NCBI GenBank assembly: GCA_903893785.1
Contig: CAITNQ010000424.1
Coordinates: 7,666 to 71,665, forward strand
Reading direction: 5' to 3'
From: an uncultured Gemmatimonadota bacterium
Lineage (GTDB): Bacteria; Latescibacterota; UBA2968; UBA8231
DNA: 64,000 bases
Position 1 is the first letter of the stretch. Each line of letters opens with the position of its first letter. The position numbers and the translations under genes were made by a program. The notes under the pieces were generated by a model, which saw only the letters and a list, made by a program, of their open reading frames with translations, did no database searches and had not been told where the DNA came from. Of this stretch, positions 15,382 to 41,939 are shown one piece after another.

Positions 15382-15876
15382 TCAGCGCTGCTGGTACTTG
15401 AGCATGCGCGCCATCAGTTCCACTTCGGCCACGCCCAAACGCACCCGGCGAGCCACCTCCGCGGCGTCCTGGCCCTGCGCCAGCAACTCCCAGGCCCGAT
15501 CGTAGCGATTGCCGCCGTTGTCGCCGCGGTCAGGGGTCGCCGCGGCGGCGGCGGGCGAGGCGTCCGCCCGCTTTGCCGGGCCCGGGCGCGCGCCCGGGCG
15601 GTGGTCGCTGTCGACGGCTTCCGGACGCGGCGATACGGCCCGCGGTGCCTCCTCCCCCGGGGTCACCCAACGCGCCTCTACCAGGGCGCACAGCCGTTCC
15701 AGGCGACCGGAAAGGCGGCCCAACTCCTGGCGCTGCACGGTCAATTCCTGCAGTGCCTGGTCCAGCCCCCTCTGCTGACATCGCACCCAGTTGCGGAACC
15801 AAAAGGTCAACCCCAGGGCGAGGAGCAGGAACGCCGCATCCACCAGGGCCAGACCCAACGTGTCTTCGCTCATCAT
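15382..15876 (-). CDS. Membrane-anchored flagellar-operon protein with a C-terminal HTH-like end (DUF2802/DUF6115-like)
   Basis: N-terminal TM, coiled coil, C-terminal 'YDRAWELLAQGQDAAEVARRVRLGVAEVELM'; overlaps the kinase stop codon. Confidence 0.65.
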   Translation of the reverse strand: MMSEDTLGLALVDAAFLLLALGLTFWFRNWVRCQQRGLDQALQELTVQRQELGRLSGRLERLCALVEARWVTPGEEAPRAVSPRPEAVDSDHRPGARPGPAKRADASPAAAAATPDRGDNGGNRYDRAWELLAQGQDAAEVARRVRLGVAEVELMARMLKYQQR

Positions 15877-17333
15877 TCAGATCCCCGGGCTTCCTGGCGA
15901 TTGAGGGGCAGGCGGAGGATGAACACGGCGCCATGCCCGGGTTCGCTGGCCACCGTTATCGTGCCCTGATGGGCCTCGATAATCCCGTAGCTGACCGCCA
16001 GGCCAAGCCCGGTCCCCCCTTCTTCCGGACGCGTGGTGAAAAACGGCTCGAAGATGCGATCGAGGTGTTCCGGCGCGATGCCGGTGCCCGTGTCGGCGAA
16101 ACGCACCTCGACCCACTCGCCGGCTCGCCGGACCTCCACCCGGAGTTCGCCGCCATCGGGCATGGCGTTGTGCGCGTTGAGGATCAGGTTGATGAAAACC
16201 TGCTCCAACTCGCCTTGGTTGCCCTGCAGCCGCGGCAGGTCCGAGTCGGCCTCGATAGCGGTGCGGATCAGTCGCTGTTCGAGTTGGTGGGCCACCAGGG
16301 CGAGGGCCTGGTGCAGCGAGTGCACCAGATCGAACTCGACCCAGTCGCTGTCGCGCACGTTGTGACCGGCGAAACCGAGCAGGGCGCGGATGATCCGCGA
16401 GATGCGGCGCACATTGCTCTCGATCAGCTGGAGCCCCTGGCGCAGCCGCTCGGGCCCGGGGGGCTGCAGCAGCAGCAACTGAACCCGGCTGAGGATGATC
16501 TGCAGGGGGTTGTTGACCTCGTGGGCCACGCCCCCGGCCAGTTCGCCGATGGCCGCCAGTTTCGCTGTCAGCAGGATCTGCCGCTGCGACTCCTGCAGCT
16601 GCCGGTGGGCGGTCTCCAGGTCGGTGTACAGCCGCGAGTTTTCGATGGCCACGGCCGTCTGGTTAGCCAGGACGCCCAAGACGTCGATCTCGCCGGCGGT
16701 GAAGTCATCTTTGGCGCGTCGGCAGTGCACTGAGTAGATGCCCAGTTCCTTGCCCCGGACGCGCAGGGGTATGGTGACGAAACTGGCTTCGTCCACGCCC
16801 GGCTGGTCGAGGGTATCGATGTCCTCGATGACCACCGGGTGACCTTCGCGGAGCACCCAGTCAATGATGCCGTCATCCCACTGCGACTGCACCTGGGTTG
16901 ACAGGCCCTCTGCCCCGCGCAGCCGCACCGTCTGCAGACCGGCCGCCTCCGCATCAAGCAGGAAAACGCCACAGCTGTCATACGGCACGAAGCGCGCCGA
17001 CAGATCCATCAATGAGGCAATGATGTCTTCCACATCGAAGCTGGTGCTGATGGTCTCGGCCAGTTCGCTCAGGTTCAGCAACTCGTCCATGGCCGTACGC
17101 AGGGCTGCGTACTGCTCATGCTCATGGTCGAGGCGCTGCTGCAGACGAGCCACCTCGGCCTCGGCTTCGCGCAACTGGGCCTGCTGAGCCTGGGCAGTGG
17201 CAGCCAGTTCAGCGACGGCGTCGGCCAACTCGCCGGGGCTGGCCGATGCCAGCTCGGGTTGGACCGAGACCAAGGCCGCCTGCAGGCGCGCCAGGGCGTC
17301 TGACTCGGCTGCGGTGGGCACCGGGCCGGTCAC
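15873..17333 (-). CDS. Cytoplasmic sensor histidine kinase (coiled coil, GAF, HisKA, HATPase; NtrB-like)
   Basis: H-box GELAGGVAHEVNNPL, N-box QVFINLILNA, DTGTGI, IFEPFFTT, GTGLGLAVSYGII; GAF 'PLRVRGKELG...LANQTAVAIENSRLY'; no TM; start reassigned to GTG 17333. Confidence 0.9.
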   Translation of the reverse strand: MTGPVPTAAESDALARLQAALVSVQPELASASPGELADAVAELAATAQAQQAQLREAEAEVARLQQRLDHEHEQYAALRTAMDELLNLSELAETISTSFDVEDIIASLMDLSARFVPYDSCGVFLLDAEAAGLQTVRLRGAEGLSTQVQSQWDDGIIDWVLREGHPVVIEDIDTLDQPGVDEASFVTIPLRVRGKELGIYSVHCRRAKDDFTAGEIDVLGVLANQTAVAIENSRLYTDLETAHRQLQESQRQILLTAKLAAIGELAGGVAHEVNNPLQIILSRVQLLLLQPPGPERLRQGLQLIESNVRRISRIIRALLGFAGHNVRDSDWVEFDLVHSLHQALALVAHQLEQRLIRTAIEADSDLPRLQGNQGELEQVFINLILNAHNAMPDGGELRVEVRRAGEWVEVRFADTGTGIAPEHLDRIFEPFFTTRPEEGGTGLGLAVSYGIIEAHQGTITVASEPGHGAVFILRLPLNRQEARGSE

Positions 17334-17412
17334 CGTTGCCCCCGGCCACGGCCCAGTACGGTCGCCGTGCGGAACCCGCCGCCCGATGCCTGCACGGCGC
17401 CTGCAGGCCCGG

Positions 17413-18498
17413 TCACGACGCGGCCGGGGGCGGGGCCGCAGCGGCGCCCCCCTCGGTGTTGGCGGCGGCTTCCTCAGGCGGGGTCGCGGCAGGTTTCTCG
17501 GGGTCGATACCGGGCTCGTCGGGGCGCACCAGGCTGGTGAAGGCGTCGGCGCGCCCCATCTCCTGGCGCAGCTGCTCGCCGTACCGCAGGATCCGGCGGA
17601 TGGCCGACCGCGGTTCCTCGTGGATGCCGAAGGCGCGCAACGCCGCCGGATCCAGGTGCGGCATGCGGACGCCGCCGCCGTCACCAATGCGCTCCTTGCG
17701 GGCCAGGAAATCAGCCAGGTGCACCAGCGAGGGCAGCTGGGCACCGCGCTCCAGACGGCCAGGAGCGTGGTGGAAGGCAATGGTATCGACGAGTTGGCGC
17801 GGCAGGTTCCACTTCTCGGCCAGCCAGCAGCCAATCTCGGCATGGGTCACACCAAGGACGGCTTCCTCGGCTTTGCCGATGTACACGTTCTCCTCGCGGA
17901 CCATGGCCATGACCCGCGCGAACTCGTCAGGGAAGTACTGACTCAGGATGAGCTTGCCAATATCGTGCAGGATGCCGGCCGCAAAGGCCTCGCCCTGCAC
18001 TCGGTATCGCAGCCGGGCGCCCAGCAGTTGGGCCGCGACGCCGACCGCGATCGAGTGCTCCCAGAACCGCTGGCGGTCGAAGGACGTCTCGGGGCCGCCG
18101 CCGGCGAAGCGCTCGAGCACCGACACGCTGAGGCCTAGGCTCTTGACGGTCTCGAAACCCAGGACAACCACGGCATGGTTCACCGTGGCGATGGTGCGGG
18201 GGAACCCGTAGAAGGCCGAGTTGGCCAGCTTGAGGATCTTGGCTGTCAGGGCCTGGTCAGTGGCGATCAGACGCGCCACGGCCCGCGCCGAGGTGCGCGG
18301 GTTGTCGATCAGGCCAATCATCTGGCTGACGACCGTTGGCAGGGTCGGCAGGCCGATAATGCTCTGGGTTACGCGTTTGAGGCGCTGTTGACGCACATCA
18401 GCCGCCGTGGGTCGGTCGGCCGCGGGCGCGGCCACGGCGCGTGGGGCCGCGGCCCCGGTGGCCCCGGGGCGGGAGGGAATGGGGCCGGCAGGAGACAT
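17413..18498 (-). CDS. HDOD domain protein
   Basis: LPTLPTVV, DQALTAKILKLANSAFYGFPRTI, FWEHSIAV, AGILHDIGKLIL, HAEIGCWLAEKWNLP, IAFHH. Confidence 0.9.
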   Translation of the reverse strand: MSPAGPIPSRPGATGAAAPRAVAAPAADRPTAADVRQQRLKRVTQSIIGLPTLPTVVSQMIGLIDNPRTSARAVARLIATDQALTAKILKLANSAFYGFPRTIATVNHAVVVLGFETVKSLGLSVSVLERFAGGGPETSFDRQRFWEHSIAVGVAAQLLGARLRYRVQGEAFAAGILHDIGKLILSQYFPDEFARVMAMVREENVYIGKAEEAVLGVTHAEIGCWLAEKWNLPRQLVDTIAFHHAPGRLERGAQLPSLVHLADFLARKERIGDGGGVRMPHLDPAALRAFGIHEEPRSAIRRILRYGEQLRQEMGRADAFTSLVRPDEPGIDPEKPAATPPEEAAANTEGGAAAAPPPAAS

Positions 18499-18499
18499 G

Positions 18500-18811
18500 T
18501 CAGGCAACGATATCGATGTGCGCCGGGCCAACCGATGCCGGGGCGTCCGGCGGCCCGGGCTGGGGCTCGGTTTCGCGGTGCTGCCGGCCCTGCCGGTGCG
18601 CACCCCCGCCGCCCGCATCGTCGTGATGGAACTCGGCACGATCGCCGGCCTCGGCCGGCAATGACCGGCTCAGGTCAACGACCTGCTGCTGGGCCGCGGC
18701 CTGGGCGGCATGGCGGTGCGCCATTTCGGGGGCCGACTGCTGGACGTGCTGGGCCCGGCCAGCCAGCGGCGCCTTGGACAGGTTGTCCTGCAGATCGATG
18801 GGTCTGACCAT
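18500..18811 (-). CDS. Small hypothetical flagellar-operon protein
   Basis: 103 aa; MVRPIDLQDNLSK...Q-rich...HIDIVA; lies between fliA and the HDOD gene on the same strand. Confidence 0.7.
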   Translation of the reverse strand: MVRPIDLQDNLSKAPLAGRAQHVQQSAPEMAHRHAAQAAAQQQVVDLSRSLPAEAGDRAEFHHDDAGGGGAHRQGRQHRETEPQPGPPDAPASVGPAHIDIVA

Positions 18812-18858: not shown

Positions 18859-19644
18859 TCAGGCCATGAACCGCTTCCGCAGCTTCGCCCGCAGGCTGAG
18901 CACCGCCTTGGTGTGCAGCTGCGACACCCTGGATTCGGACAACTCGAGGACGAGCCCGATCTCCTTCAGGGTGAGTTCCTCATAGTAGTAAAGCGCGACC
19001 ACGAGCCGTTCCTGGTCACCCAACTCGCCCAGCGAGTCGGCCAGCAGATCACGCATCTCCTCGCGTTCCAGGTTGGCCAGCGCGTTGGGCTGGTCGCGGG
19101 AACGCAGGGTATCGACGAGGGGCACCGGCTTGTCGTCGTCGTCGCCGTGCGTCATCTCGTCCAGCGACAACAGCGAAGCCGAGCTGACGTCGTCGATCAT
19201 CTCGTAATACTCGTCCATTCCGACGCCCAGACCGGTTGCCAACTCGGTCTCGCTGGGGCTTCGCCCCAGTTCGCCTTCCAGACGCGAAATGGCCCGCTCG
19301 ATCTCACGCGACCGGGCCCGCGTTGACCGCGGTACCCAATCCATGCCACGGAGTTCGTCGAGGATGGCGCCGCGGATGCGCAGCGACGCATAGGTCTCGA
19401 ACTTCACCCCCTTGGCCACGTCGAAGTTGTGGTACGCCTCGATCAGCCCCACCACGCCGGCGTTGACCAAGTCGCTCAGTTCGACGGAACGCGGCAGGCC
19501 GATGGCCAGGCGGCCGGCGATATACTTGACCAGCGGCAGGTAGTCCACCAGCTGACTCTCGCGCTGCGCCTCGCCCACGACCTGCCCCTTGTGCTGGTCG
19601 TAACGCTGCGCCGCCTTCCTGGCCGTGGTCTTGTCGCCGGTCAT
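18859..19644 (-). CDS. fliA: RNA polymerase sigma-28 (FliA/WhiG)
   Basis: YLPLVKYIAGRL, KFETYASLRIRGAILDELRGMDWVPRS, LYYYEELTLKEIGLVLELSESRVSQLH; start at 19644 or 19680. Confidence 0.95.
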   Translation of the reverse strand: MTGDKTTARKAAQRYDQHKGQVVGEAQRESQLVDYLPLVKYIAGRLAIGLPRSVELSDLVNAGVVGLIEAYHNFDVAKGVKFETYASLRIRGAILDELRGMDWVPRSTRARSREIERAISRLEGELGRSPSETELATGLGVGMDEYYEMIDDVSSASLLSLDEMTHGDDDDKPVPLVDTLRSRDQPNALANLEREEMRDLLADSLGELGDQERLVVALYYYEELTLKEIGLVLELSESRVSQLHTKAVLSLRAKLRKRFMA

Positions 19645-19681
19645 CACGGTATCCGCTTGCGGTGCAGGAGAGCCCGTCATA

Positions 19682-20497
19682 TCAGGTGGAAGAAACCCAG
19701 GCCGCCTGGCGCTGCGCCAGGGCCCGAGCGAACAGGCCGCTGCCGATACCGTCGCCGCCGGCCGCCACCAGGCCCGAAGCCATCCGGGTGATGGCCACCG
19801 CCGCCGGCGGGGCCGGAACGCCGCACACCAGGGGTACCTGGCGCTTGCTGGCCTCCCGGACATTCCGATCTAACGGAATAAAGCCGAGGTTGTCAATCTC
19901 CACGCCGAGGAAACGGCGCGCCAACTCGGCGAAACGGCGGTGCAGCTCGGCAGCTTCGGCAGCCGAATCGGCCATGTTCACCAGCAGGCGCGGCTGCAGG
20001 CCGGCGGCGGCGCCGAGGAACACTTTCAGCGCCGCATAGGCGTCGGCAATGGCCGTGGGCTCGGGGGTCACCACGAGTATCAGGTCGGCCGCGGCCGAAA
20101 CGAAATCCACCGTTGCGGCGGGGATACCTGCGCCGGTGTCGACGATGACAAAGTCGAAACCGGATTCGAAGCCAGCCAGGGCCTCGACCGTGTCCGGCAG
20201 CACGTCGGTACGGAGCCAGTAGTCGGTCTGACCATCGGCCGCCGACGCCAGCAGGCAGAGGCCTTCAGGTCCGGCGAACGCGGCTTCGTCCACGCCGCAC
20301 TGACCACGCAGCAGGTCTTGAATGGTGTGGGGTGGGTCCACGCCAAGGAGCACGGCTGCCGCGCCCAGACCCAGGTCCGCATCCACCAGCAGGACCCGTT
20401 CGCCCAGACGTGCCATGGCCACCGCCAGGTTGACTGCGACGACGCTCTTGCCCACTCCCCCTTTGCCGCTGGAGACGGCCAGATACTTCACCCCCAT
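19682..20497 (-). CDS. flhG: MinD-like flagellar number regulator
   Basis: SSGKGGVGKS, VDADLGL, DTGAGI, TPEPTAIADAYA; lies between flhF and fliA. Confidence 0.9.
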   Translation of the reverse strand: MGVKYLAVSSGKGGVGKSVVAVNLAVAMARLGERVLLVDADLGLGAAAVLLGVDPPHTIQDLLRGQCGVDEAAFAGPEGLCLLASAADGQTDYWLRTDVLPDTVEALAGFESGFDFVIVDTGAGIPAATVDFVSAAADLILVVTPEPTAIADAYAALKVFLGAAAGLQPRLLVNMADSAAEAAELHRRFAELARRFLGVEIDNLGFIPLDRNVREASKRQVPLVCGVPAPPAAVAITRMASGLVAAGGDGIGSGLFARALAQRQAAWVSST

Positions 20498-20501
20498 GTG
20501 G

Positions 20502-21818
20502 TCACCGTTCCTTCGTGTCGGCGGCCGGCGCGCCAATGGCCCGCGCCACCCAGGCAGCCAGATCACCGGCCTCGATCTGCCCGGGAACGCCGTTGCCGAC
20601 GCCCAGATACGAAGTGGGCACCTGGCTGCGGATCGCGGCGCTGACCGCGGGCCCTGGCCTGAGCGTGTCGTCCATTTTGGTGAACAGCAGTCGACGCGTC
20701 GGGAAGACGGTCGCGGCCTCGATCTGGTCCAGCATGTGCTCCAGGCTGCTGCCGCCGTCCAGCACCACCTGGACCTCTTCCACGCCCGCGGCGGTGAGGA
20801 CCTGCACCTGCCGCTCGCGTTCACGCTGGTCCCGCGGGCCGCAGCCCGCCAAGTCGACCAGCACCAGGCGCACCTGCGGGTAGCGCGTCAGAACCTCGGC
20901 GATCTCGGCACCGTCATAGGCGGTCTCCAATGGCACACCGATGATACGGGCGTAGGCGCGGGCCTGGTCCAGGGCACCCACGCGGCGGTCGTCGGCGGAG
21001 ACCAGCAGGACCCGGCCGCCGCGCTTGAGGGCAAAGCCGGCAGCGATCTTGGCCGCGGCCGTGGTCTTGCCCGCCCCAGCGGCGCCGAAGAAGCCAACGA
21101 CCTGGCGTCGTGTGGTCAGGCGCAGGTCCCGGCATTCGGGCAGCTGCGCCGCCAGCAACGCCGCCGCGCGTTCGGCCACCACGTCCCGGTCCGACAGGGC
21201 CGTACCGTCCAGCTCGAGCAGCAGCGCTTGCACGGTCTGGTCCGCCAGGTCTGCGGCCAGTCCCAGGCTGCGCAGGCGCTCGTCCAGGCGGGCCAGCGCC
21301 TCTGGCAGGTCCACCCCGCCACCCCGGCGGCGCTCCAGACGGGCCACGGCCTCGTTGAGGTGTCGCAGGCCGCGCGCCAGCTGCTGCAGTTCCACGCCGC
21401 CCGTGGGTGCCGGTGCCAGTGGCGCTGGCGATGAGGGGCGACGCAGCGCTGCCGGCAGTGCCGGTGGGGTGCCGTCCGGGTCAGGAACCGCTGGCGCCGG
21501 GGCGGCTGGCGGCGCGGCCGGTGCCACCCCGCCCGAACCCGCGCGCGCTGACGGGATCGGCGCATACTGCCGTGCCGCCCACGGGGCGGCACGCGCCCCT
21601 GCGGGCTCGGCCGGCGGCGGCACGGCCGTGCCCCCCCCGGTGGGCGCCGTCTCGTCAAAGGCAGCCGTCACCTCGACCCGAGGCTCCTCCTGGGGACCGA
21701 AGCGGTTGTTGCGCCTGACCTGCCGCGTGTTCAGGATGACGGCGTGGTCGCCGAGGTCATCACGAACCTGCTGCAGGGCTTCCGGCATACTCCGGGCTAC
21801 GTACTTCCTGATCTTCAT
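20502..21818 (-). CDS. flhF: SRP-family GTPase FlhF
   Basis: MKIRKYVARSMPEALQQVRDDLGDHAVIL N-terminus; GAAGAGKTT; TKMDD. Confidence 0.9.
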   Translation of the reverse strand: MKIRKYVARSMPEALQQVRDDLGDHAVILNTRQVRRNNRFGPQEEPRVEVTAAFDETAPTGGGTAVPPPAEPAGARAAPWAARQYAPIPSARAGSGGVAPAAPPAAPAPAVPDPDGTPPALPAALRRPSSPAPLAPAPTGGVELQQLARGLRHLNEAVARLERRRGGGVDLPEALARLDERLRSLGLAADLADQTVQALLLELDGTALSDRDVVAERAAALLAAQLPECRDLRLTTRRQVVGFFGAAGAGKTTAAAKIAAGFALKRGGRVLLVSADDRRVGALDQARAYARIIGVPLETAYDGAEIAEVLTRYPQVRLVLVDLAGCGPRDQRERERQVQVLTAAGVEEVQVVLDGGSSLEHMLDQIEAATVFPTRRLLFTKMDDTLRPGPAVSAAIRSQVPTSYLGVGNGVPGQIEAGDLAAWVARAIGAPAADTKER

Positions 21819-23886
21819 GGCTTAGCGTCAGGCTTCCGACCGAAGAGACCTCCACGTCCGGCGCTATCTCGTTATAGGACAGGACGTACAGGCTGGGGAA
21901 ATTGGCGGCGGTCAACTTGCGGAACGCCAGGCGGAGGTGCGGCGCAGTCAGCACCACCGGCTGCTGGCCCGCCCCGATCATCTGGTCAACCAGGGACGTC
22001 AGACGGGCAAAGAGTTCGCTGGCCAGATCCGGTGCCAGGGCCACGGTGATGCCGCCCGGGGTCGCCTGAACGGCTTCCCGGATGAGCTCTTCCGCCTCGC
22101 CGTCCAGGGTCAGGACGGCCAATTCACGCTCCGGCGTATCCTTGAGCAGCGAGTTGCATATCTGCCGACGCAGCGACGTGCGCACGTATTCGCCCAGGAT
22201 TTCGGCGTCGCTCACCTCGGCGTAGTCGGCCAGGATCTCCAGAATGGTGCGCAGATCACGGATCGGCACCCGCTCGGACAGCAGGCTCTGCAGCACGCGT
22301 TGCAGCCGCCCCAACGGCACTACCGTAGGTACCAGTTCCTCGACCACCTTGGGGTAGACTTTCTTGAGCTCGTCGAGCAGGTGCTGCGTTTCCTGGCGAC
22401 CGAGCAGTTCCCTGGCGTGAGTATGGATGACCTCGGTCAGATGGGTTGCGATAACCGCCACGGGCTCGACGACATTGTACCCGAGCAACTCGGCCTTCTC
22501 GCGCAGGCCCGGCGCAATCCAGCGGGCGGCCAGCCCGAACACCGGATCGACCACCGGCGTGCCCTCGACCGGTCCCTCGGCAAACCCCGGATTGATGGCC
22601 AGCAGCTGGCGGGGCTGCAGTTCGCCCCGGGCCACGGTATTACCCTTCACCCGGATCTGGTAGTCGGCAGGCTTCAGGTCGGTGCTGTCACGCACGCGCA
22701 CTGGCGGTGCAATGAAACCCATCTCCATGGCAGCGACTTTGCGGATCTGCACGATCCGCTCGATCAGGTCACCGCCCTGACGCGCGTCCACCAGAGGCAC
22801 CAGTTGGTAACCCACCTGCACCTCGAGCGGATCCACGCGCAGGTAGTCCTCGGGCCGCTCCTCGGGTTTGGTCTCCACTTCCTGAGTGGCGCGGACGGCC
22901 GCCGCTTCCTCCCGATGCCGGCGTCGCACCAGACTCGCCGACGCAATGAGCAGGCCGCCGATGATCAGGAAAGGCCAGGCAGGCAGCCCGGGAACCAGAG
23001 CCAGGGCCAGCAGCATGGCGCCGGCGATGGCGCCGGCCTGGGGCCGCCCGGTAAGCTGGCGGCTGATGTCACGCCCGAGGTTGCCGTCCGTGGTCGCCCG
23101 GGTGACAATGATACCCGCGGCCGTAGAGGTGATCAGGGCCGGGATCTGCGTCACCAGGCCGTCGCCGACGGTCAGCAGGGTGTAGGTCTTCAGCGACTGG
23201 GCCAGATCCATGCCGTGCTGCAGCACGCCGATGGCGAAACCACCGATGATGTTGATCAGCGTGATGAGGATGCCCGCCACGGCATCGCCCCGAACGAACT
23301 TGCTGGCGCCGTCCATGGCTCCGTAGAAGTCCGCCTCGCGGGAGATGTCTTCGCGTCGTCGCCGCGCCGTTTTCTCGTCAATCAGACCGGCGTTCAGATC
23401 GGCGTCGATGGCCATCTGCTTGCCGGGCATGGCGTCCAGGGTGAACCGGGCCGCGACCTCGGCCACCCGCCCCGAACCCTTGGTGATGACGACAAAGTTG
23501 ATGATGATGACAATGGCGAAGATGATGAAACCCAGCACGTAGTTGCCGCGCACCACCACGCTGCCGAAGGCGGCGATCAGGCGGCCCGCGTCCGCGTCGC
23601 TGAGGATCAGGCGGGTCGACGCCACGTTGAGCGACAGGCGGAACAGCGTCAGCACGAGCAGCAGCCCGGGGAAAACGGACAGCTCAAGCGGGGCGGTGAT
23701 GTAGATCGTCAGCATCAGCACCAGCAGGGCCAGGCTGATGTTAAGGGCAATGAAGAAGTCCATCAGGTACGTGGGCAGTGGCACGATCATCACGCCGAGG
23801 ATCGTGACCACGCCCACGGCGATCAGGACGTCGGTATGCCCGGCCAGCTTACTGAGGAACTTGCGCAAGGCTCCCTGCTCTCTCAC
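21760..23886 (-). CDS. flhA: Flagellar export gate protein FlhA
   Basis: RVAEVAARFTLDAMPGKQMAIDADL, DFYGAMDGASKFVRGDA, GDGLVTQIP, ERVPIRDLRTILE. Confidence 0.98.
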   Translation of the reverse strand: MREQGALRKFLSKLAGHTDVLIAVGVVTILGVMIVPLPTYLMDFFIALNISLALLVLMLTIYITAPLELSVFPGLLLVLTLFRLSLNVASTRLILSDADAGRLIAAFGSVVVRGNYVLGFIIFAIVIIINFVVITKGSGRVAEVAARFTLDAMPGKQMAIDADLNAGLIDEKTARRRREDISREADFYGAMDGASKFVRGDAVAGILITLINIIGGFAIGVLQHGMDLAQSLKTYTLLTVGDGLVTQIPALITSTAAGIIVTRATTDGNLGRDISRQLTGRPQAGAIAGAMLLALALVPGLPAWPFLIIGGLLIASASLVRRRHREEAAAVRATQEVETKPEERPEDYLRVDPLEVQVGYQLVPLVDARQGGDLIERIVQIRKVAAMEMGFIAPPVRVRDSTDLKPADYQIRVKGNTVARGELQPRQLLAINPGFAEGPVEGTPVVDPVFGLAARWIAPGLREKAELLGYNVVEPVAVIATHLTEVIHTHARELLGRQETQHLLDELKKVYPKVVEELVPTVVPLGRLQRVLQSLLSERVPIRDLRTILEILADYAEVSDAEILGEYVRTSLRRQICNSLLKDTPERELAVLTLDGEAEELIREAVQATPGGITVALAPDLASELFARLTSLVDQMIGAGQQPVVLTAPHLRLAFRKLTAANFPSLYVLSYNEIAPDVEVSSVGSLTLSHEDQEVRSPEYAGSPAAGS

Positions 23887-27487: not shown

Positions 27488-27532
27488 GGTCACCCGGTTC
27501 ACCGTCTCGAGGAAGGCCGTCGGGCGACAGGG

Positions 27533-30165: not shown

Positions 30166-30207
30166 GTCTACTTCCTTTCCACGCCGCCGTCGCTGCGGCC
30201 GTCGGGC

Positions 30208-32488: not shown

Positions 32489-32621
32489 GGTTTTCTGCTC
32501 CCCACCCCGCGACTGGCCGGGTGCCTGAGCTCGCCGCGCCTCATCCGGGGCCCTGCGAGCTGTTTTCGCCACGACCTTCCCTGACCGCAGTTCTTGTGTC
32601 TGGCCATCGGTTCCCGGTCGA

Positions 32622-33302
32622 TCAATCGTCGGCGACCACACCGGCCAGGTCAGCTACCGAGAGCTGGCGTCCCCCGGCCCACACCTGGGCGCTGTTGCCG
32701 CCATAGCGCACGGCGTCGACGCGAGCTCGGGCCACGATCTGGCCGGTAACGGTATCGCCGGCCGCGTTCAAACCGGTCACGGCGACCCGGTAGTCACCCT
32801 CGGGGACCGCCACCCCATCGTCGCTGCGACCGTCCCACGAAACCGTTCCGGTCGTGCCACCCGGGTCCAGGGTGTAGCCACGCACGGTGCGCCCCAGGGC
32901 GTCGGTGACCGCCAAACTGGCCTGCTTCCACCCCTGGCCCAGGCGGTAATCCATCGACGCGTCGCTGCTGCCATCCCACGTCACCTGGGTCACCGGGACC
33001 TCGACCGTTCGGCCCACCAGGGAGGTGGCGCGGTCCGTGGCCAGCGCGGTCTTCAGGTCGCTGTCGGCGCTCAGGCTCTGCGTCAAGGTCGAATTCATGT
33101 TCTGGAGTTGCTCGAGCGAGGTGAACTGGGCCATCTGGGCGATGAATTCCTTGTTGTCCATCGGATCCATCGGGTCCTGGTACTGCAGCTGAACCGTCAA
33201 CAGGCGCAGGAAATCGTCCTTGCCCAGCTGGTTCTTGCTCGAACTGGTGCCCGCCGTGCTGGTCTGGCTGGTCTTGGCGCTGGTGATATCGCTGATGTTC
33301 AT
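32622..33302 (-). CDS. flgD: Hook-capping protein FlgD
   Basis: [35 protein letters not shown]; WDGRSDDG. Confidence 0.96.
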
Positions 33303-35244: not shown

Positions 35245-35771
35245 CAGTCTCCTTGGTCCGGGGACATCGACACCGCTAGGCGGCCGGCCACCGCCGGCCT
35301 CATCGCCTCTTCTTCGGCCACCTCATCGCGTCGCCGACGCTGGTGCAGTTGCTCGCCGATCTCGTCGAGCAGGCGGCGCTCGCTCTGCTGCTGTTCCTCG
35401 CGGTGTCGAGCCCGAGCCTGCTCCCGGAGGATTTCGTATGTCCGCCGCTCACGGGCGGCGACGGCCAGACGCTGCCGACGTTCCTCGACCACCGCTTCTA
35501 CCTGCCGTATGCGCTGCTCCTGGGCGCCGATCTCGCCGCGCAACCGCTGCAGATAGCCAGCGCCCAGTCCCAGCACCACGGCGTCCAGGCGAGCCGCGGC
35601 CGGCGTCGCCGAGGCCTGCCGGTAGGTATCCCGCATACGCTGCAGATCGGCCAATCGATCGCGCTCATAGTTGAGCACGGCCACGGCTTCACCCAGCGAG
35701 GCCCGCCGCGCCTCCTCAAGGCGCTCCTTGACGGTCAGGATGGGCTGGAAACGGAAACGGAAGCGTTTCAC
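35244..35771 (-). CDS. fliJ: Flagellar export protein FliJ
   Basis: MKRFRFRFQPIL...EQQQSERRLLDEIG; follows fliI. Confidence 0.9.
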   Translation of the reverse strand: MKRFRFRFQPILTVKERLEEARRASLGEAVAVLNYERDRLADLQRMRDTYRQASATPAAARLDAVVLGLGAGYLQRLRGEIGAQEQRIRQVEAVVEERRQRLAVAARERRTYEILREQARARHREEQQQSERRLLDEIGEQLHQRRRRDEVAEEEAMRPAVAGRLAVSMSPDQGD

Positions 35772-37111
35772 CGGCGTCTCCGGCTGGTCGGTAAGGGTTC
35801 GGGCGGCGCCACCAGCAGGCCCATCAGGCGCTGGACGTGCTGATCGAGGCGCCCCGGCGAAACGCTGTCTTGGCGCAGATAGGCGTTGATCGGCTCGATG
35901 AACTTCAGGGCGCGGTCGATCCGCGGGTTACTGCCGCGGGCATAGGCGCCGATATTGATCAGGTCCTCGGCCTCGGCATGAGCGGCCAGCAACGACTTGA
36001 TCTCGACGCTGCGTTCCCAGTGCGCCGGCGTCACCACATCTTTCATCGCCCGGCTGATGCTCTCCATGACATCGATCGGCGGGTAGTGCCCGCGTGAAGT
36101 CAGGCGGCGGGACAGCACCACGTGACCGTCCAAGATCGCGCGGGCCGCATCGGCGATGGGTTCGTCCATGTCGTCGCCCTCGACAAGCACGGTGTAAAGC
36201 CCGGTGATGCTGCCGTGGCGCGTCCCCCCGGCCCGTTCCAGCAGTCGCGGCAACAGGGCGAAGACCGAGGGCGTGTACCCCCGCGTGGTCGGCGGCTCGC
36301 CGGCTGCCAGGCCGATCTCGCGCTGGGCCATGGCGACGCGGGTGATCGAATCCATCATCAGCATCACGTCGAGCCCTCGGTCGCGGAAATACTCCGCCAC
36401 CGTGGTGGCCACCAAGGCCGCCTTGAGCCGGATAAGCGCCGGTTGGTCCGACGTGGCGACGACCACGACCGATCGACGTAGTCCTTCGTGACCCAGATTG
36501 TCTTCGAGGAAGTCCAGCACCTCCTTGCCGCGCTCGCCGACCAGGCCGATGACATTGACATCAGCCTCGGAATGGCGCGAGATCATCCCCAGGAGCGTGC
36601 TCTTCCCCACGCCAGACCCGGCGAATATCCCCAGGCGCTGCCCTTTGCCCACGGTGACCATGCCGTCCAGAGCCCGTACACCTGTGCCCAGGGGTTCCCG
36701 GACGCGCGCCCGGCTGAGCGGGTCCGGAGCAGCGCCGTGCACCGACACCGAAGCCTCGGCGTAGACCGGGCCTTTGCCGTCCAGCGGTTCGCCCAGACCA
36801 TTGAGGATACGGCCCTGCAGTCCCCGCCCGACGGCGATGCGCAGCGGCGCGCCGGTGGCAAACACCGCGGTGCCCGGGCGGATACCCTCGATCGGGCCCA
36901 GCGGCGTCAGCAGTACCTGCTTGCCGCGGTACCCGACCACCTCGGCGCGCACCCCGCGAGCCCGGCTGTCGCCGATGTAGCACAACTCGCCCAGAGCCAC
37001 CCCTTCTGGGCCCAGGGCTTCCACGATAAGGCCCACGACCTTGGCAACGCGGCCATAGGGCTGCAGCGGCCGGGCCTGATCGACGGCACGGAGAAGAGCC
37101 TCTGCTTCCAC
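35768..37111 (-). CDS. fliI: Flagellar export ATPase FliI
   Basis: GQRLGIFAGSGVGKS, GERGKEV, MMDSITR, LLERAG, ILDGHVVL, EDLINIGAY. Confidence 0.97.
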   Translation of the reverse strand: MEAEALLRAVDQARPLQPYGRVAKVVGLIVEALGPEGVALGELCYIGDSRARGVRAEVVGYRGKQVLLTPLGPIEGIRPGTAVFATGAPLRIAVGRGLQGRILNGLGEPLDGKGPVYAEASVSVHGAAPDPLSRARVREPLGTGVRALDGMVTVGKGQRLGIFAGSGVGKSTLLGMISRHSEADVNVIGLVGERGKEVLDFLEDNLGHEGLRRSVVVVATSDQPALIRLKAALVATTVAEYFRDRGLDVMLMMDSITRVAMAQREIGLAAGEPPTTRGYTPSVFALLPRLLERAGGTRHGSITGLYTVLVEGDDMDEPIADAARAILDGHVVLSRRLTSRGHYPPIDVMESISRAMKDVVTPAHWERSVEIKSLLAAHAEAEDLINIGAYARGSNPRIDRALKFIEPINAYLRQDSVSPGRLDQHVQRLMGLLVAPPEPLPTSRRRR

Positions 37112-37113
37112 AG

Positions 37114-37893
37114 CTAGTCTCCTTCGGGGCCGGTCGCCGGCGGCGCCAAGGCAGCACGGAGGGCCTGGTGCAGGGCCTCCAGTTGGGTCTCCAGACGGGC
37201 GTCCACATTGCCCTCATCGCCCTCGACCATGCACCCCCCACGACCGACCGCGTCACTGGCAACGACGCGGAGAGCGGTGGCCTGAGCCACCTTGTCAACC
37301 CACCGGGCCGCGAATCGGCGCGCCAGTTGCACGTCCTCGGGATGCACTTTGATTTCCAGCCGGCTTTCCTGCGCCAAGGCCTCCAGAGCCGCACGGATAC
37401 CTCGCACCAGGACGCGCGACTCGGCTTCGACCTGCACGCCGGTGATGCGTCGGGCCGTGGCCACTGCCAGGTCGACGACGAGGGTCTCGGCGCCTCGCAG
37501 CACCTGCGCCCGGTCTTCTTCCAGGGAACGGTGCAGCGCTGCAAAGCGCTCGACGGCCTCGCGGGCCTCGGCCTCTTTGGCCTCGATGCCCGCCTGGTAC
37601 CCCTCCTCGTAGCGCTGCTGGTGCACCTGCTGGCGGTCAGCTTCGGCACGCGCTGCAGCCTGGCGCAGCCGCTGCTCGGCGTCGGCCTGAAGCTGAGCGC
37701 GCTCCTGCGCCAAACGGGCCGCGGACTCGGTCTCCAGTTGCTGCCGCAGGGCTTGCACCCGGGCCTGTACCAAACCCGGCAGATCAATTGCGGACGGTCC
37801 GCTGGGTTCGGTGCTCAGGTACAGCTCACGCTCCGCCTGGCCCAGGGTGACTACGGGTCCGGTTACCCGTACCGTGCGGATGATCTTCGACAC
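37114..37893 (-). CDS. fliH: Flagellar assembly protein FliH
   Basis: YEEGYQAG repeat, VHPEDV, VGRGGCMVEGDEGNVDARLETQL. Confidence 0.9.
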   Translation of the reverse strand: MSKIIRTVRVTGPVVTLGQAERELYLSTEPSGPSAIDLPGLVQARVQALRQQLETESAARLAQERAQLQADAEQRLRQAAARAEADRQQVHQQRYEEGYQAGIEAKEAEAREAVERFAALHRSLEEDRAQVLRGAETLVVDLAVATARRITGVQVEAESRVLVRGIRAALEALAQESRLEIKVHPEDVQLARRFAARWVDKVAQATALRVVASDAVGRGGCMVEGDEGNVDARLETQLEALHQALRAALAPPATGPEGD

Positions 37894-37948
37894 GATCGTG
37901 GGCTCCGCCGGCAGCGGGGTCAGACCCCAGAGGCCGGATTCGGGGGCA

Positions 37949-39475
37949 TCACACTTTCTCTTCCAGTAACATCGTCTTGATCAGCTTGGCCGCGTCTTCG
38001 GGCCGGTCCCGGACCATCTGCTGCACCCGGGCCAAGATGATGTCATGGGGCGTCTCCGGGCGCTCGAACGATTCCTCGGCAACGTCGGGCTGCACTTCGC
38101 CGAGCACTTCGAGCTCTTCTTCCACGCCGACCCCGCGCCCGATGGCCTGGATGATGAAGCGCAGGGTTACCAGCGCCGCGACAATGCCGAGGATCTTGGC
38201 CACGGTGACGGCGATACCGGTCCAGAACTCCTTGCGCTGCTCGGCTTCGGCTGCCTTCTTGGCCTGCAGTTCCTCGGTTTTCTCGAACGGCATGGCGAAG
38301 ATGGTGATCTGATCGCCGCGCTTCTCGTCGAGACCGACCGCGTTGATCGCCAGTTGCCTGAGGTGCTCGATCTCCTGGTCGGTGCGCTTCTCTTCGATGT
38401 ACTCGTTGGGGTTATTGGGGTCGACGACAACCTTGGTCTCGTCGATGGTCAGGGCCATGGACATGCGCTCGATTCGCCCGACCGCACCGACGATGTTCTG
38501 CACCGTACGGTTGACCTCGTAGTTGCGTATCGTCTGCTCGTCGGTCCCCTGCTCGGCCGAGCTCTTCTCGTTGGTCTCCTCGCTGACCACCACCTGCGTT
38601 TCGCCGGGATCCACCGTGTTACTCTGCGTCTGGCGCTGACTGAAATCCAGCGTGCAGTTGATCCGGACCCGCGAGCGGTCCTTGGCAATGACCTGGTCCA
38701 TCAGGCTCTGGACTTTCTGCTCCAGGGCCCGCTCAACCTGCTGCTGCATCTCGAACTGCTTGTTGGCCACCTTGACCAGCGGGTCTTTCTCCTCGGAGAG
38801 CATGTTGCCCGACTGATCGAGGACCACCACGTTGGCCGGTTCCAGGCCTTCGACGCTAGCACTGACGAGGTTGACGATGGCGTCCACGCGCTCGCGCTTC
38901 AGGCGCGCATTCTTGGCCAGCGTCAGGGACACCGAGGCAGTCGTGGGGTTCTGCGTTTCGCTGAACAGGCTGGGGGCCGGGATCACCAGGTGCACGCGCG
39001 CGGAGCGAACCCCGTCAATGCGCTCGAGGGTCTTCTCCAATTCCTCCTGCAGGGCCCGCTGGAAATTGACTTTCTGCAGGAAGTCGGTCATGGTGAGCTG
39101 CGCGTCTTTGAAGATGTCGTAGCCCATGCGTCCGGTCTTGGGGTACCCTTCGCCAGCCAGACGCAAGCGCAGGTCGCGGACCTCGTCGGCGGGCACGAGA
39201 ATGGCGCTGGCATCGTTGGTCAGCCGATGCCGCACCTGCATGTCCGTGAGTCGCCGGCTGACGTCGGCCGCTTCCTGGTAGTCCAGGTCGGCATACAGAA
39301 TCGCGCCGTCCCAGTTTTTGTCGTCTTTGCCGGTCGAGGCGAAGATGGCAATGGCGATGGCGAGGACCACGGCAGCCGCCACGCCCACGACCAAACCGCG
39401 CTGCATCTGGTTGGCGCCACCCCACCAGGCTCGGGAGCGATCGGCGATGTCGTTGATTGGAGTCGGCAGGTTCAT
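37949..39475 (-). CDS. fliF: Flagellar MS-ring protein FliF
   Basis: Two TMs; LRLRLAGEGYP, GYDIF, QRALQEELEKT, ARVHLVIP, PTTASVSL, NYEVNRT. Confidence 0.96.
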   Translation of the reverse strand: MNLPTPINDIADRSRAWWGGANQMQRGLVVGVAAAVVLAIAIAIFASTGKDDKNWDGAILYADLDYQEAADVSRRLTDMQVRHRLTNDASAILVPADEVRDLRLRLAGEGYPKTGRMGYDIFKDAQLTMTDFLQKVNFQRALQEELEKTLERIDGVRSARVHLVIPAPSLFSETQNPTTASVSLTLAKNARLKRERVDAIVNLVSASVEGLEPANVVVLDQSGNMLSEEKDPLVKVANKQFEMQQQVERALEQKVQSLMDQVIAKDRSRVRINCTLDFSQRQTQSNTVDPGETQVVVSEETNEKSSAEQGTDEQTIRNYEVNRTVQNIVGAVGRIERMSMALTIDETKVVVDPNNPNEYIEEKRTDQEIEHLRQLAINAVGLDEKRGDQITIFAMPFEKTEELQAKKAAEAEQRKEFWTGIAVTVAKILGIVAALVTLRFIIQAIGRGVGVEEELEVLGEVQPDVAEESFERPETPHDIILARVQQMVRDRPEDAAKLIKTMLLEEKV

Positions 39476-39602
39476 CGGTGCGGTCCTCGATGGGTGGATA
39501 ACCGGTAACAGGGGCAGACCGTACGGACCCCAAGCCGGCGGCCGCCAGCCCCTACCCGGGCGGCCCCGACGCTGCCGGCGCAGGCGGGCCGGCAGACGGG
39601 CG

Positions 39603-39947
39603 CTACACCTGCATGCGGATCAGTTCCTGGTACCCTTCCAGGACGCGGTTGCGGATTTCCAGCATCAGGTCCATGGCCACCGAAGCCTCCTCCACCGCAA
39701 TCATCACCTGGTGCACATCGGTCGACTTGCCCGTGGCCAGGCCGTTGATGGCGTCGCCGGCGGAGAACTGAAGGTCATTGACGTCACTGGCAAAGTCCTT
39801 CACCAGATCGCCGAACGTGCGTTGCGTCCCGGCCTCCTGTGGCGTAGCCACGGCCGTGCCGGTTGGCACCGCGTCGCGCGACGGCAACTGGAGGCGGAAA
39901 GCCCCCTCGCTGCGGCCGGTGAAGTCGCGGATCGCCTGAATAGCCAT
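39603..39947 (-). CDS. fliE: Hook-basal body protein FliE
   Basis: DVHQVMIAVEEASVAMDLMLEIRNRVLEGYQELIRMQV. Confidence 0.96.
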   Translation of the reverse strand: MAIQAIRDFTGRSEGAFRLQLPSRDAVPTGTAVATPQEAGTQRTFGDLVKDFASDVNDLQFSAGDAINGLATGKSTDVHQVMIAVEEASVAMDLMLEIRNRVLEGYQELIRMQV

Positions 39948-39948
39948 C

Positions 39949-40587
39949 TCAGCGCACCTCGACTTGGCCGAGTTGCCGGCGCAGGCGCATGACCCGAGGT
40001 ACGTACTCCCGTGTCTCCAGGGGCATCCGCCCCTGCTCGACGGCCTGTGGCCCGGCGTTGTAGGCCCACAGCGCCACCTCAACAGTGCGATACCGGTCGA
40101 GCAGCGAACGCAGATACCGCGTGCCCGAGGCAATGTTGTGCTCCGGGTCAAACAGATCGCCGGCGCCCAGGGACTTGCCCGTGGCCGGCATGAGTTGCAT
40201 CAGTCCCCGGGCCCCTTTGCGCGACACGGCGCGGGGGTCGCCCCCGGACTCGGCCTGGATCACCGCGCGCACCAGGTTGGCGTCCAGGCGGTTCTCGGCG
40301 CTGTAGCGGTCGACCAGTTCATCGTAGTGTGCCCCCCGCGGTCCGGTGTCCCGGCGGTCGCGATCGGGTTCGCCGATCCGCCCCAGGAACGGCCGCGGTT
40401 GGCCGTGGACGGGACGGCTGCTGCGGCCGACGATACCGGCCACCGTATGGTTGGCGAAGCTGTTGGCGATGATCGCCGCCAGCGGGTCGGCGGGGGGTGA
40501 CCCGGCCATCAGCGCCGACGCGGTGCCCAGGGTCGTGACCCAGGCAGCGACGGCGGCACGCGGCGCGCGGCGGCAGCGGGCGGTCAC
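39949..40587 (-). CDS. Lytic transglycosylase (SLT domain)
   Basis: AVIQAESGGDPRAVSRKGARGLMQLMP (catalytic Glu), NIASGTRYL, AYNAG, ETREYV. Confidence 0.92.
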   Translation of the reverse strand: MTARCRRAPRAAVAAWVTTLGTASALMAGSPPADPLAAIIANSFANHTVAGIVGRSSRPVHGQPRPFLGRIGEPDRDRRDTGPRGAHYDELVDRYSAENRLDANLVRAVIQAESGGDPRAVSRKGARGLMQLMPATGKSLGAGDLFDPEHNIASGTRYLRSLLDRYRTVEVALWAYNAGPQAVEQGRMPLETREYVPRVMRLRRQLGQVEVR

Positions 40588-40922
40588 GCGGTCAGGTCCA
40601 TCAGCCCGCCCAGGCTCACCCCGGTGCTGGCCGCGCGGACACCGCGCAGACCGTATACCGAAGGGGAGGGGGCGGTGGCTGCAGCCGGGGCCGCGAAGGC
40701 GTCGCGCAGGGCCTGCGTTTCAGCGGCACTGAGCACGGCCTGCAGTCTGGGGCTCGAGGTGACCTGGGTCGCGGCCGGCGAAACCGGGGGTGCCGGGGCC
40801 GAGGGGCGGTCGACCCTGGGGGTGGAGACGCCGCGGCGGCCGTCGATGGTCAGGTCAGCCTGGGCCCTTGGCGCCAGGGCGCGAGGCAGCGCCCCGCCCG
40901 AGGCTGTGCGGTTGATGTTCAT
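40584..40922 (-). CDS. Small hypothetical flagellar-operon protein
   Basis: 112 aa; GGAGG RBS; MNINRT...VLSAAETQAL...LGGLMDLTA; overlaps the SLT start. Confidence 0.7.
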   Translation of the reverse strand: MNINRTASGGALPRALAPRAQADLTIDGRRGVSTPRVDRPSAPAPPVSPAATQVTSSPRLQAVLSAAETQALRDAFAAPAAATAPSPSVYGLRGVRAASTGVSLGGLMDLTA

Positions 40923-40970
40923 GGGTTCCCTCCCCGTGGCAGATCACGGCGCCCGGCGGGCGCCGCCGGG

Positions 40971-41462
40971 CTAGATCTCCAGCGACCGGTTGATCATGTC
41001 CTTGGCCGCGCCCAGCACCGTGACGTTAGCCTCGTAGGCGCGCGACGTGGCGATCATGTCCACCATCTCGGTGATCGGATTGATGTCCGGAAGCAGCACC
41101 ATGCCGTCTTCGCGGGCATCCGGATGGTTCGGGTCGTACACCATGCGCGGTTTGACCGGCTCCTCGCGCACCTCGGCGGTGCGCACGCCGGAGCCGACGA
41201 TGAACTCCCCCGGCTGCGGCGCCCCCTCCTCCATGTGCGCCGCCTGCGTCCGCCGCAGGCGGTTCTGTTCGCGATCGAGGACGGTGTTGAAGGTGCTGGC
41301 CTTGGGCGCCTCCATCATGATCACACGCTTGCGCTTGTACGGGCCGCCCTCGTCGGTGCGCGTGGTGTCAACGTTGGCCAGGTTGCTGGCGATAGCGGTC
41401 AGGCGACGCCGCTGCGCGCTCAGACCCGTGCCGCTGATGTCGATGGTATCGAAGATGCGCAT
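40971..41462 (-). CDS. flgC: Proximal rod protein FlgC
   Basis: ISGTGLSAQRRRL...NLANVDTT; YDPNHPDA; EMVDMIATSRAYEAN. Confidence 0.97.
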   Translation of the reverse strand: MRIFDTIDISGTGLSAQRRRLTAIASNLANVDTTRTDEGGPYKRKRVIMMEAPKASTFNTVLDREQNRLRRTQAAHMEEGAPQPGEFIVGSGVRTAEVREEPVKPRMVYDPNHPDAREDGMVLLPDINPITEMVDMIATSRAYEANVTVLGAAKDMINRSLEI

Positions 41463-41525
41463 GCGGGTTCACTCGCGGTTGCCGCGCGACCCTGGAGGGT
41501 CAGCGCCGGTGGCGGGCGGCGGAGC

Positions 41526-41939
41526 TCAGCGCGAGCGTCCGGTGATGGCTTTGCGCAGTCCGTCGAACTGCCGCGCCATCAGCTTCTGGCCGGCGTTGAA
41601 GAACAGGTGGTTCTCGGCCAGGGTGGCCATCTCCTGGTCGATGTCGACATTGTTCAGTCCTGAGTCGTTGACACTGGATTCGGGCTCGAAGACTTCCGGG
41701 TTGGCCGTGGGGCTAGGGATCGCCAGGTGCCGCGGGTCGCTACGGCGTCCCTCGATCGCGGTGTTGCCGACAATGGACTCCAGATAGTCCTGGAAGCGCA
41801 CGTCCTGGCGCCGGTACCCCGGGGTGCTGACGTTGGCGACGTTGTTAGCCAGCACGCGCTGCCGGAGCTGGGTAACGTCCAGCACGCCGGTGAGCACCGG
41901 GACCTTGGTCTTGTTGAACAGCACCTTGTCGAGGAACAT
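41526..41939 (-). CDS. flgB: Proximal rod protein FlgB
   Basis: RQRVLANNVANVSTPGYRRQDV; NNVDIDQEM. Confidence 0.96.
   Translation of the reverse strand: MFLDKVLFNKTKVPVLTGVLDVTQLRQRVLANNVANVSTPGYRRQDVRFQDYLESIVGNTAIEGRRSDPRHLAIPSPTANPEVFEPESSVNDSGLNNVDIDQEMATLAENHLFFNAGQKLMARQFDGLRKAITGRSR

Follow-up and report, generated by a model that had tools for sequence, protein, structure and literature searches.

We examined a stretch of 64,000 nucleotides (hereafter the window), corresponding to positions 7666-71665 of contig C424 in a metagenome-assembled genome (MAG) of an uncultured bacterium of the phylum Latescibacterota. The MAG, here called G000, comprises 7.26 Mb in 561 contigs with an estimated completeness of 93.8% and an estimated contamination of 7.8%, and the window is G+C-rich (59-74% per 2-kb step). 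It carries a flagellar operon of 25 genes on the minus strand, running from 41939 to 18859, in which fliG and motAB, the genes for the rotor protein FliG and the stator proteins MotA and MotB, are missing. We find that both are encoded elsewhere in the same genome, and the window very probably holds the core operon of an ordinary rotary flagellum with outer-membrane rings whose torque-generating parts lie at other loci. Below, C numbers denote contigs of G000, G numbers genomes (G001 shares its genus with G000) and L numbers extracted loci.

The flagellar operon of the window

For the annotation, the long minus-strand frames between 41939 and 15382 were translated and 28 of them were scanned against Pfam. 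Every gene that a preliminary description of this DNA had listed was named by a Pfam family, in the order and on the strand it had given. The operon begins with the proximal rod gene flgB (41526..41939; Flg_bb_rod, e-value (E) = 7.9e-07) and the rod gene flgC (40971..41462; Flg_bb_rod and Flg_bbr_C), followed by an open reading frame (ORF) of 112 amino acids (aa; 40584..40922) that has no Pfam match, occupies the same position in G001 and has a 51% identical counterpart in locus L188. The next gene encodes an SLT lytic transglycosylase (39949..40587; SLT, E = 2.4e-27) that stays adjacent to fliE in relatives and presumably gives the rod passage through the peptidoglycan. It is followed by fliE (39603..39920; FliE, E = 1.2e-23) and the MS-ring gene fliF (37949..39475; YscJ_FliF and YscJ_FliF_C), and then, across a spacer of 55 nucleotides (37894..37948) at the site that fliG occupies in other lineages, by fliH (37114..37893; FliH, E = 7.4e-19), which has a GTG start.

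The genes for the export ATPase, fliI (35768..37111; ATP-synt_ab and T3SS_ATPase_C), for FliJ (35244..35771; FliJ), for hook-length control, fliK (33337..35244; Flg_hook at residues 511-590), for the hook cap, flgD (32622..33302; FlgD, FlgD_ig and FLgD_tudor), and for the hook, flgE (30515..32491, with the frame open up to 32641; Flg_bb_rod, LlgE_F_G_D1, FlgE_D2 and Flg_bbr_C), lead to flbD (30208..30420; FlbD, E = 7.9e-26). A second spacer, of 42 nucleotides (30166..30207), lies where synteny places motAB in G014 and G021 of the same family, and separates flbD from fliL (29470..30165; FliL), which has an ATG start and whose ribosome-binding site, GGAAAGGAAG, falls inside the spacer. Beyond it is fliM (28393..29448; FliM and FliMN_C), the product of which has the N-terminus MADILTQDEIDALL and with it a segment, LTQDEIDALL, that we take to be the CheY-P binding motif.

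The remainder of the operon consists of fliN (27849..28361; FliMN_C), fliO (26909..27490; FliO), fliP (26127..26912; FliP, E = 1.6e-86), fliQ (25797..26066; Bac_export_3), fliR (25008..25778; Bac_export_1), flhB (23933..24997; Bac_export_2, E = 1.9e-127), flhA (21760..23886; FHIPEP, E = 3.3e-267), flhF for a GTPase of the signal recognition particle type (20502..21818; SRP54), flhG for a MinD/ParA-type ATPase (19682..20500; ParA, CbiA and AAA_31) and fliA for a sigma-28 type sigma factor (18859..19650; Sigma70 r2, r3 and r4). The export gate looks intact, as had been reported, with the NPTH motif of FlhB and the Walker A motif GSGVGKST of FliI both present in the translations.

Both spacers were read directly from the sequence, from the fliF stop to the fliH start and from the flbD stop to the fliL start, and at 55 and 42 nucleotides they are too short for a gene or the remnant of one, so the operon is without fliG, without motAB and without pseudogene traces, just as the preliminary description had read it. 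A whole-genome profile search gave no FliG_C match on contig C424. The single MotA_ExbB match on this contig belongs to an ExbB gene followed by two ExbD genes (window 56138-57796), and the matching gene itself (57074-57796) was rejected as a hidden motA since these two ExbD genes follow it without a MotB. This non-stator gene is the sole member of the MotA family in the window and belongs to a minus-strand group (54828-62205) in which a 1079-aa TPR protein is encoded before the ExbB-ExbD-ExbD set and a DUF4159 protein after it.

The operon closely resembles the fla/che-type operon of Firmicutes, spirochaetes, Thermotogae and phyla of the FCB group, with the same gene content and order throughout. 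That layout reads flgB-flgC-fliE-fliF-fliG-fliH-fliI-fliJ ... flgD-flgE-flbD-motA-motB-fliL-fliM-fliN-fliOPQR-flhB-flhA-flhF-flhG-fliA. The operon of the window differs from it in lacking fliG, as does the whole class, in lacking motAB, as does this genus, and in carrying the SLT transglycosylase and the small unnamed ORF between flgC and fliE. The locus represents a familiar type of system, with a layout specific to this lineage.

Three further genes of the minus strand lie 3' of fliA. The first encodes an HDOD protein (17413..18639; HDOD, E = 1.9e-66) whose position is kept in G008 and G030, the second a GAF-HisKA-HATPase histidine kinase (15873..17400, its start uncertain and its frame open to 17843; GAF, HisKA and HATPase_c) and the third a DUF2802 protein (15382..15876; DUF2802, E = 5.8e-09). 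Elsewhere in the window, a minus-strand stretch (2437-9229) encodes a 1613-aa protein with Peptidase_M28, MacB periplasmic and FtsX domains and adjoins the gene of a DUF6785/DUF6784 membrane protein.

Motor and late flagellar genes at other loci

A profile search of the whole of G000, as the preliminary description had proposed, matched FliG_C at 11 places, MotA_ExbB at 4, Flagellin_N at 8 and CheW at 6, one of the last within a 741-aa open frame of CheA size, and all three FliG domains, MotA and MotB, flagellin, flgG, flgK, flgL and che genes were found. Two stand-alone fliG genes are of canonical length, one on contig C301 (346 aa) and one on C160 (371 aa), and in both FliG_N, FliG_M and FliG_C score above the Pfam cut-offs. 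The C301 protein aligns with FliG of Thermotoga maritima (1lkv; E = 4e-55), and its EHPQT motif and SER...EE...GPMR segment are conserved. In a FliG alignment that includes 57 canonical-length sequences, among them the C301 and C160 proteins, and 6 FliGs with N-terminal extensions, the torque-helix arginine (by E. coli residue numbering) is present in 57/57 of the canonical-length proteins.

We looked for a conserved partner beside the stand-alone fliG genes and rejected two candidates, a 490-aa ORF after the C301 gene and a LysM-amidase gene after the C160 gene, as neither is recurrent in relatives. The sole recurrent neighbour is a 368-aa ORF, divergently oriented, which precedes the C160-type fliG in three loci of relatives (L153, L154 and L174). 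The fliG neighbours in six loci of relatives are otherwise mixed and include genes for a sigma factor, HDOD and FapA proteins as well as metabolic genes.

A motA gene (MotA_ExbB and MotA_N) adjoins a motB gene (MotB_plug and OmpA) on contig C112 (locus L037:8648-10442). The MotA aligns over its full length with a solved MotA (9lu9; E = 3e-54) and the MotB with a solved MotB (6ysf; E = 2e-42), the channel aspartate in TYADLITLLL being aligned to that of 6ysf. The entry 9lu9 is the best solved match of this MotA, and its B chain is a Paenibacillus sp. TCA20/E. coli chimera. Two other MotA_ExbB matches were considered as stators and rejected: that on C258 has TonB_C, TolB and OmpA genes around it in a cluster of the Tol-Pal type, and that on C307 is ExbB-ExbD. 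Profile searches combined with Pfam scans of the neighbourhoods found only one MotAB pair in G000.

The late genes are found mainly on contig C28, in the order flgF-flgG-flgA-flgH-flgI-flgJ (rod-binding)-flgN-flgK-flgL-fliW, together with three flagellin genes, flaG, fliD and fliS. The FliD encoded there, the filament cap, is unusually long at 1227 aa (L039:8774-12457). A further Flagellin_N match lies on the contig of the window itself (C424:4894-5304), about 2.4 kb upstream of the window start. The strict pattern TAAA-N14-17-GCCGATA, which we take to be the sigma-28 consensus, has 4 matches genome-wide, two of them just upstream of flagellin genes (C28:26728 and C377:4355). With this strict pattern none was found before fliG or motA in G000, a negative of small weight given that fliG normally belongs to the early genes.

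All these genes appear to come from one organism. When the operon proteins were searched against G000 with tblastn, flgB, flgC, fliE, fliF, fliH, fliJ, fliK, flgD, fliL, fliO, fliP, fliQ, fliR, flhB and flhA were each found once, and these single copies indicate that the bin holds one flagellar system and not two organisms' worth. The tetranucleotide correlations of C301, C160, C112 and C28 with C424 are 0.987-0.995 (bin median 0.983), which places these four contigs at the 65th-99th percentile of similarity to C424. These data confirm that the absence of fliG and motAB is a property of the operon and not of the genome.

In the flagellum that we propose, the operon would supply the export gate and ATPase complex, the MS ring, the proximal rod, the hook with its cap and ruler, FlbD, FliL, the FliM and FliN of the lower C ring, placement by FlhF and FlhG, and sigma-28. 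FliG would come from C160 or C301, MotA and MotB from C112, and the late proteins from C28, from C377 and from the gene upstream on C424. In this motor, driven by protons or another ion, FliG would be anchored to FliM and to the C-terminal tail of the operon's FliF, and its C-domain would take the push of the MotAB stator. The genes are present, their domains are intact and their key residues are conserved; such a flagellum would presumably assemble and its motor rotate, with one of the two canonical-length proteins as the probable motor FliG.

Age and spread of the fliG-less junction

The arrangement follows the phylogeny. Our panel of relatives consisted of 41 genomes, G000 and 40 others; families f1 to f4, named below, belong to the same class. 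FliF was found in 20 of the 41 (G000 and 19 relatives) and FliG_N in 21, the two sets being the same genomes except for G028. We scored a fliF locus as informative if it held the 3' end of fliF and downstream DNA. By this measure fliH directly follows fliF, with no fliG between them, in all 16 informative loci of f1 (12 full-length and 2 partial) and f3 (2), while four further fliF loci are cut by contig ends and uninformative. Families f2 and f4 show the same fliG-less junction in 5/5 genomes, bringing the class to 21/21 informative relatives, whereas in other classes of the phylum fliE-fliF-fliG is found in 8/8 genomes.

A wider sample agrees with this pattern. Among 79 loci fetched with a FliG query, fliF and fliG are adjacent in 58, which come from other phyla and one other Latescibacterota lineage; the order fliE-fliF-fliG-fliH-fliI is found in Zixibacteria, Fibrobacterota, Gemmatimonadota, Eisenbacteria, Rhodothermota, Acidobacteriota and others. 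Two loci have fliG followed by fliH/fliI with the fliF side cut off, two have fliG inside fliN/fliM modules, and 17 have fliG alone. Thirteen of these 17 are close relatives (71-82% identity) and the other four, one of them on a contig of 1.7 kb, fall in a Glassbacteria-like clade. In this clade L094, L098 and L099, from MAGs labelled Glassbacteria or Gemmatimonadales, carry a stand-alone fliG with no fliF or fliH within 6 kb, and their clade-mates L092, L096 and L102 are operonic. The stand-alone genes of this clade indicate that duplication or relocation of fliG is not unique to Latescibacterota.

In our FliG trees, which are quick searches with support from the Shimodaira-Hasegawa-like approximate likelihood ratio test (SH-aLRT) only, all FliGs of the class group together in a single clade (SH-aLRT 100), next to which stand the operonic FliGs of Zixibacteria and those of one other Latescibacterota lineage. 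Family f1 has three FliG ortholog groups, namely the C301 type, the C160 type and a third, divergent one with no member found in G000. The class-wide junction and the single FliG clade together indicate that fliG left the operon once, from between fliF and fliH in the ancestor of the class. Operonic motAB would have been lost later, in this genus: G014 (L180:11097-12732) and G021 (L182:10669-12159) of the same family keep flbD-motA-motB-fliL, and G000 and G001, which belong to one genus, have no motAB in the operon. The genus would instead use a divergent motAB pair at another locus, and this pair may be a replacement rather than a moved copy.

Placing rotor and stator genes apart from the MS-ring and export genes has parallels. 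In E. coli and Salmonella motAB lies in a separate operon, and in alpha-proteobacteria fliG lies apart from fliF. The present lineage is like these in having rotor and stator genes away from those for the MS ring and export apparatus, and unlike those scattered regulons in that the long single-operon layout is kept and only fliG, and motAB in this genus, are gone.

Several observations weigh against the flagellum proposed above or leave parts of it loose. The organism is known from a MAG alone, of the completeness (93.8%), contamination (7.8%) and fragmentation (561 contigs) already given. Over its final 36 residues the window's FliF gives an end-to-end alignment with the FliF peptide in a crystal of FliF with FliG_N (5wuj_A), the match being weak (E = 0.064). 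The C160-type and C301-type FliG ortholog groups are both conserved across the family, and either could serve the motor. The motAB pair of G000 and G001 is only 31-39% identical to the operonic pairs of the same family, compared with roughly 45-75% for most other operon proteins between these genomes (FlhF, FliO and FliL are lower, at 33-47%), and identities at this level do not fix the orthology or the coupling ion of the stator of this genus. Finally, the single-contig genome G008 has a degraded operon (C1:2018400-2044000; L186 and L187) that is missing the N-terminal part of fliF, fliE, flgBC and a stretch from within fliI to fliR, which could be real decay or an assembly error. G008 nevertheless gives 8 FliG_N matches, of which some are split, so at least some FliG copies may persist without a working flagellum.

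Additional rotor genes and alternative explanations

The two canonical fliG genes are part of a larger set. Among genomes of the window's class with a FliG_N match (E <= 1e-15), 38/41 have 2-9 copies and 3/41 have one, whereas exactly one copy is found in 12/12 such genomes from other classes of the phylum. G000 has one fliF against six FliG_N places, at least six FliM-type genes and more than 10 FliN domains. Three of its FliG genes lie in fliN-fliN-fliG-fliM modules on C436 (L023:1794-5044), C69 (L024:8517-11105) and C546 (L025:7102-10395), the last of which follows a gene for a sigma factor of the extracytoplasmic function (ECF) type. In two other genomes, G030 (L150, L155 and L160) and G014 (L163, L168 and L176), there are triplets of near-identical FliGs with branch lengths of 0-0.036, a pattern pointing to gene conversion or to duplication in the very recent past.

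The module FliGs are about 450 aa long and carry, just before FliG_N, a segment resembling the C-terminal tail of FliF. This segment matches the last 23-31 residues of the window's FliF in the C69 protein (E = 8e-5) and the C436 protein (E = 0.003), with no significant match to the same tail in the C546 protein, and the copy in a relative (L066) shows 77% identity with the FliF tail across 35 residues. When residues 1-125 of the C436 FliG were searched against a collection of 5.8 billion proteins, only the query's own cluster was returned, and the extension of this protein is conserved in the tail motif only. The torque-helix arginine that is present in 57/57 canonical-length FliGs is found in 0/6 of the N-extended ones.

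An AlphaFold2 (AF2) model of the C69 FliG has a mean predicted local distance difference test (pLDDT) score of 74.9 and a predicted template modelling (pTM) score of 0.35; the tail-like segment is modelled as two helices (pLDDT about 80-87) and the remainder as a FliG fold. Comparison of the N-extended model with the full-length FliG 3hjl confirmed the fold (Z = 19.5) at a root-mean-square deviation of 19.0 over 300 residues, a high value that fits a different arrangement of domains. The fold search is uninformative on how the tail packs, the FliF peptides in the structure bank being separate chains. A complex prediction between the tail (residues 76-117) and FliG_N (118-216) scored 0.52 against 0.00 for the best control, with runs agreeing in at least 84% of contacts and partner pLDDT of at least 61. 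Among 157 solved complexes 116 pass the mark used in this prediction, as do 2 among 215 mismatched pairs, and scores of 0.60 or below come from only 18 of the 157 solved complexes and from both passing mismatches, so the support is weak; since a FliF_C-FliG_N complex has already been solved, the pass may also reflect likeness only.

Motor domains also occur in other combinations. A cluster on C321 (L030:3564-10801) encodes a sigma-54 response regulator, an N-extended FliM (464 aa), a FliN, a fusion of FliN to an FGE-sulfatase domain and a 752-aa fusion of a FliF-tail-like motif, FliG_N, FliG_M and a HisKA kinase core. On C290 (L027:7002-7721) a 239-aa protein joins FliG_C to the cytoplasmic loop and the C-terminal tail of MotA, without the transmembrane segments TM3 and TM4, and matches the C112 MotA by BLASTP (E = 9e-9 and 6e-5). 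Similar soluble FliG_C/MotA chimeras on C329 (L029:2-637) and C383 (L028:464-1771) were judged by eye only. In another Latescibacterota MAG, a MotA-like membrane protein fused at its C terminus to FliG_C (L083:3932-5275) is encoded directly upstream of a module of fliN, an extended fliG and fliM.

One possible explanation for this set, compatible with an ordinary rotary flagellum although we consider it doubtful, is rotor diversification: a single MS ring would be fitted with alternative switch complexes under different regulators, and the off-operon position of fliG would be part of a rotor-swapping design. The single fliF beside many switch-complex genes, the three modules with one next to an ECF-type sigma factor, and the copy numbers that separate this class from the others all speak for it, as do the LTQDEIDALL-type N-terminal segments in 4 of the 6 FliM paralogues examined. 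However, only one MotAB pair was found, the module FliGs are without the torque-helix arginine (0/6), and their FliF-tail-like segment, lying in cis, would compete with docking on FliF.

We tentatively entertain a different account, which we hold to be a minority possibility as well. After fliG left the fliF-fliH junction, proteins derived from the motor may have radiated to give 2-10 FliGs per genome, the modules and the chimeras, and these may form assemblies resembling the switch complex that are neither anchored to the MS ring nor driven by stators. Such assemblies could act as CheY-responsive scaffolds or as competitors or brakes of the rotor. The copy of the FliF tail in a module FliG would fill that protein's own FliF-binding groove, and this account ties the unanchored assemblies to the flagellum because they are found only in flagellated genomes.

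Far less probable is the headline of the preliminary description, that the product of the operon is a secretion system derived from the flagellum but unable to rotate, or a hook-type appendage, in an organism devoid of FliG and MotA. The absence of fliG and motAB from an otherwise intact-looking operon first suggested it, and G008, with its degraded operon and no MotB_plug match found in its genome, indicates that motility loss does occur in the family. However, fliG, motAB, flagellins, fliD, flgKL, the P- and L-ring genes and che genes are all present in the same genome, an outcome that the preliminary description had itself named as the refutation of its headline, and the locus has flagellum-specific rod, hook, FliK, FliL and FlbD genes. 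FliL and FlbD are both stator-associated, and FliM keeps its LTQDEIDALL segment. The parallel drawn with injectisomes, which lost fliG and motA, also fails, the exit of fliG being old, class-wide and in genomes that keep fliG. Injectisomes and the reduced, secretory basal bodies of the Buchnera type combine ring proteins and an export gate with no FliG or MotAB, whereas in G000 the genes for FliG, MotAB, flagellin, hook, junction, cap and chemotaxis are all retained. The preliminary description had allowed that the motor genes might simply have moved to a separate locus, and it is this branch that stands; the synteny comparison it had called for, with 21/21 fliG-less junctions, favours relocation and speaks against a non-rotating device.

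Least probable of all is a binning artefact in which the fliG and motAB contigs come from another organism and the operon's owner has neither: the 561 contigs, the 7.8% estimated contamination and the low tetranucleotide similarity of the short contig C436 to C424 (2nd percentile) would allow it, but C301, C160, C112 and C28 rank high in that similarity, a flagellated contaminant would bring a second fliF, flhA, flhB and fliPQR and none is in the bin, the one- or two-contig relatives G014, G030, G067 and G092 combine the fliG-less junction with several fliG genes on those very chromosomes, and the C301 FliG (82% identical) and the C112 MotA and MotB (66% and 60%) all have orthologues in G001.

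The flagellum proposed here also invites comparison with lineages that have multiplied their switch-complex genes. Borrelia is said to have two FliG paralogues, FliG1 and FliG2. Passages of a study of Leptospira interrogans mention three FliG and two MotA copies (PMC11800159). As far as those passages go, the spirochaetes are like the present class in combining multiple FliG paralogues with one flagellar type and unlike it in that here there are up to 9-10 FliG copies per genome, whole modules, a subfamily with the FliF tail joined to FliG, and FliG/MotA chimeras. For Campylobacter jejuni, one report describes an expanded C ring with diversification of FliY, FliM and FliN (PMC6946799); in both cases switch-complex proteins have been duplicated and have diverged, but the C. 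jejuni paralogues are components of one C ring, whereas the present genomes have several complete FliG-FliM-FliN gene sets. Latescibacteria have been reported to encode flagella (PMC4454575). We found no description of displacement or amplification of fliG in Latescibacterota, and none of fliN-fliN-fliG-fliM modules, FliF-tail-FliG fusions or FliG/MotA chimeras, in the literature searched, which was mostly titles and abstracts.

The torque genes of G000 are encoded elsewhere and not lost, and a gap in an operon should therefore not be read as a lost function without a check of the whole genome. What could matter more broadly is that the exit of fliG appears to be a class-wide and datable event, followed by amplification and recombination of rotor genes. 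Docking of FliF with FliG, contact between rotor and stator, and assembly of the C ring are otherwise studied through engineered fusions, and engineered FliF-FliG fusions exist as structures (8z4d). Should the N-extended FliG modules and FliG/MotA chimeras work at the motor or next to it, they would offer natural probes for these three interfaces.

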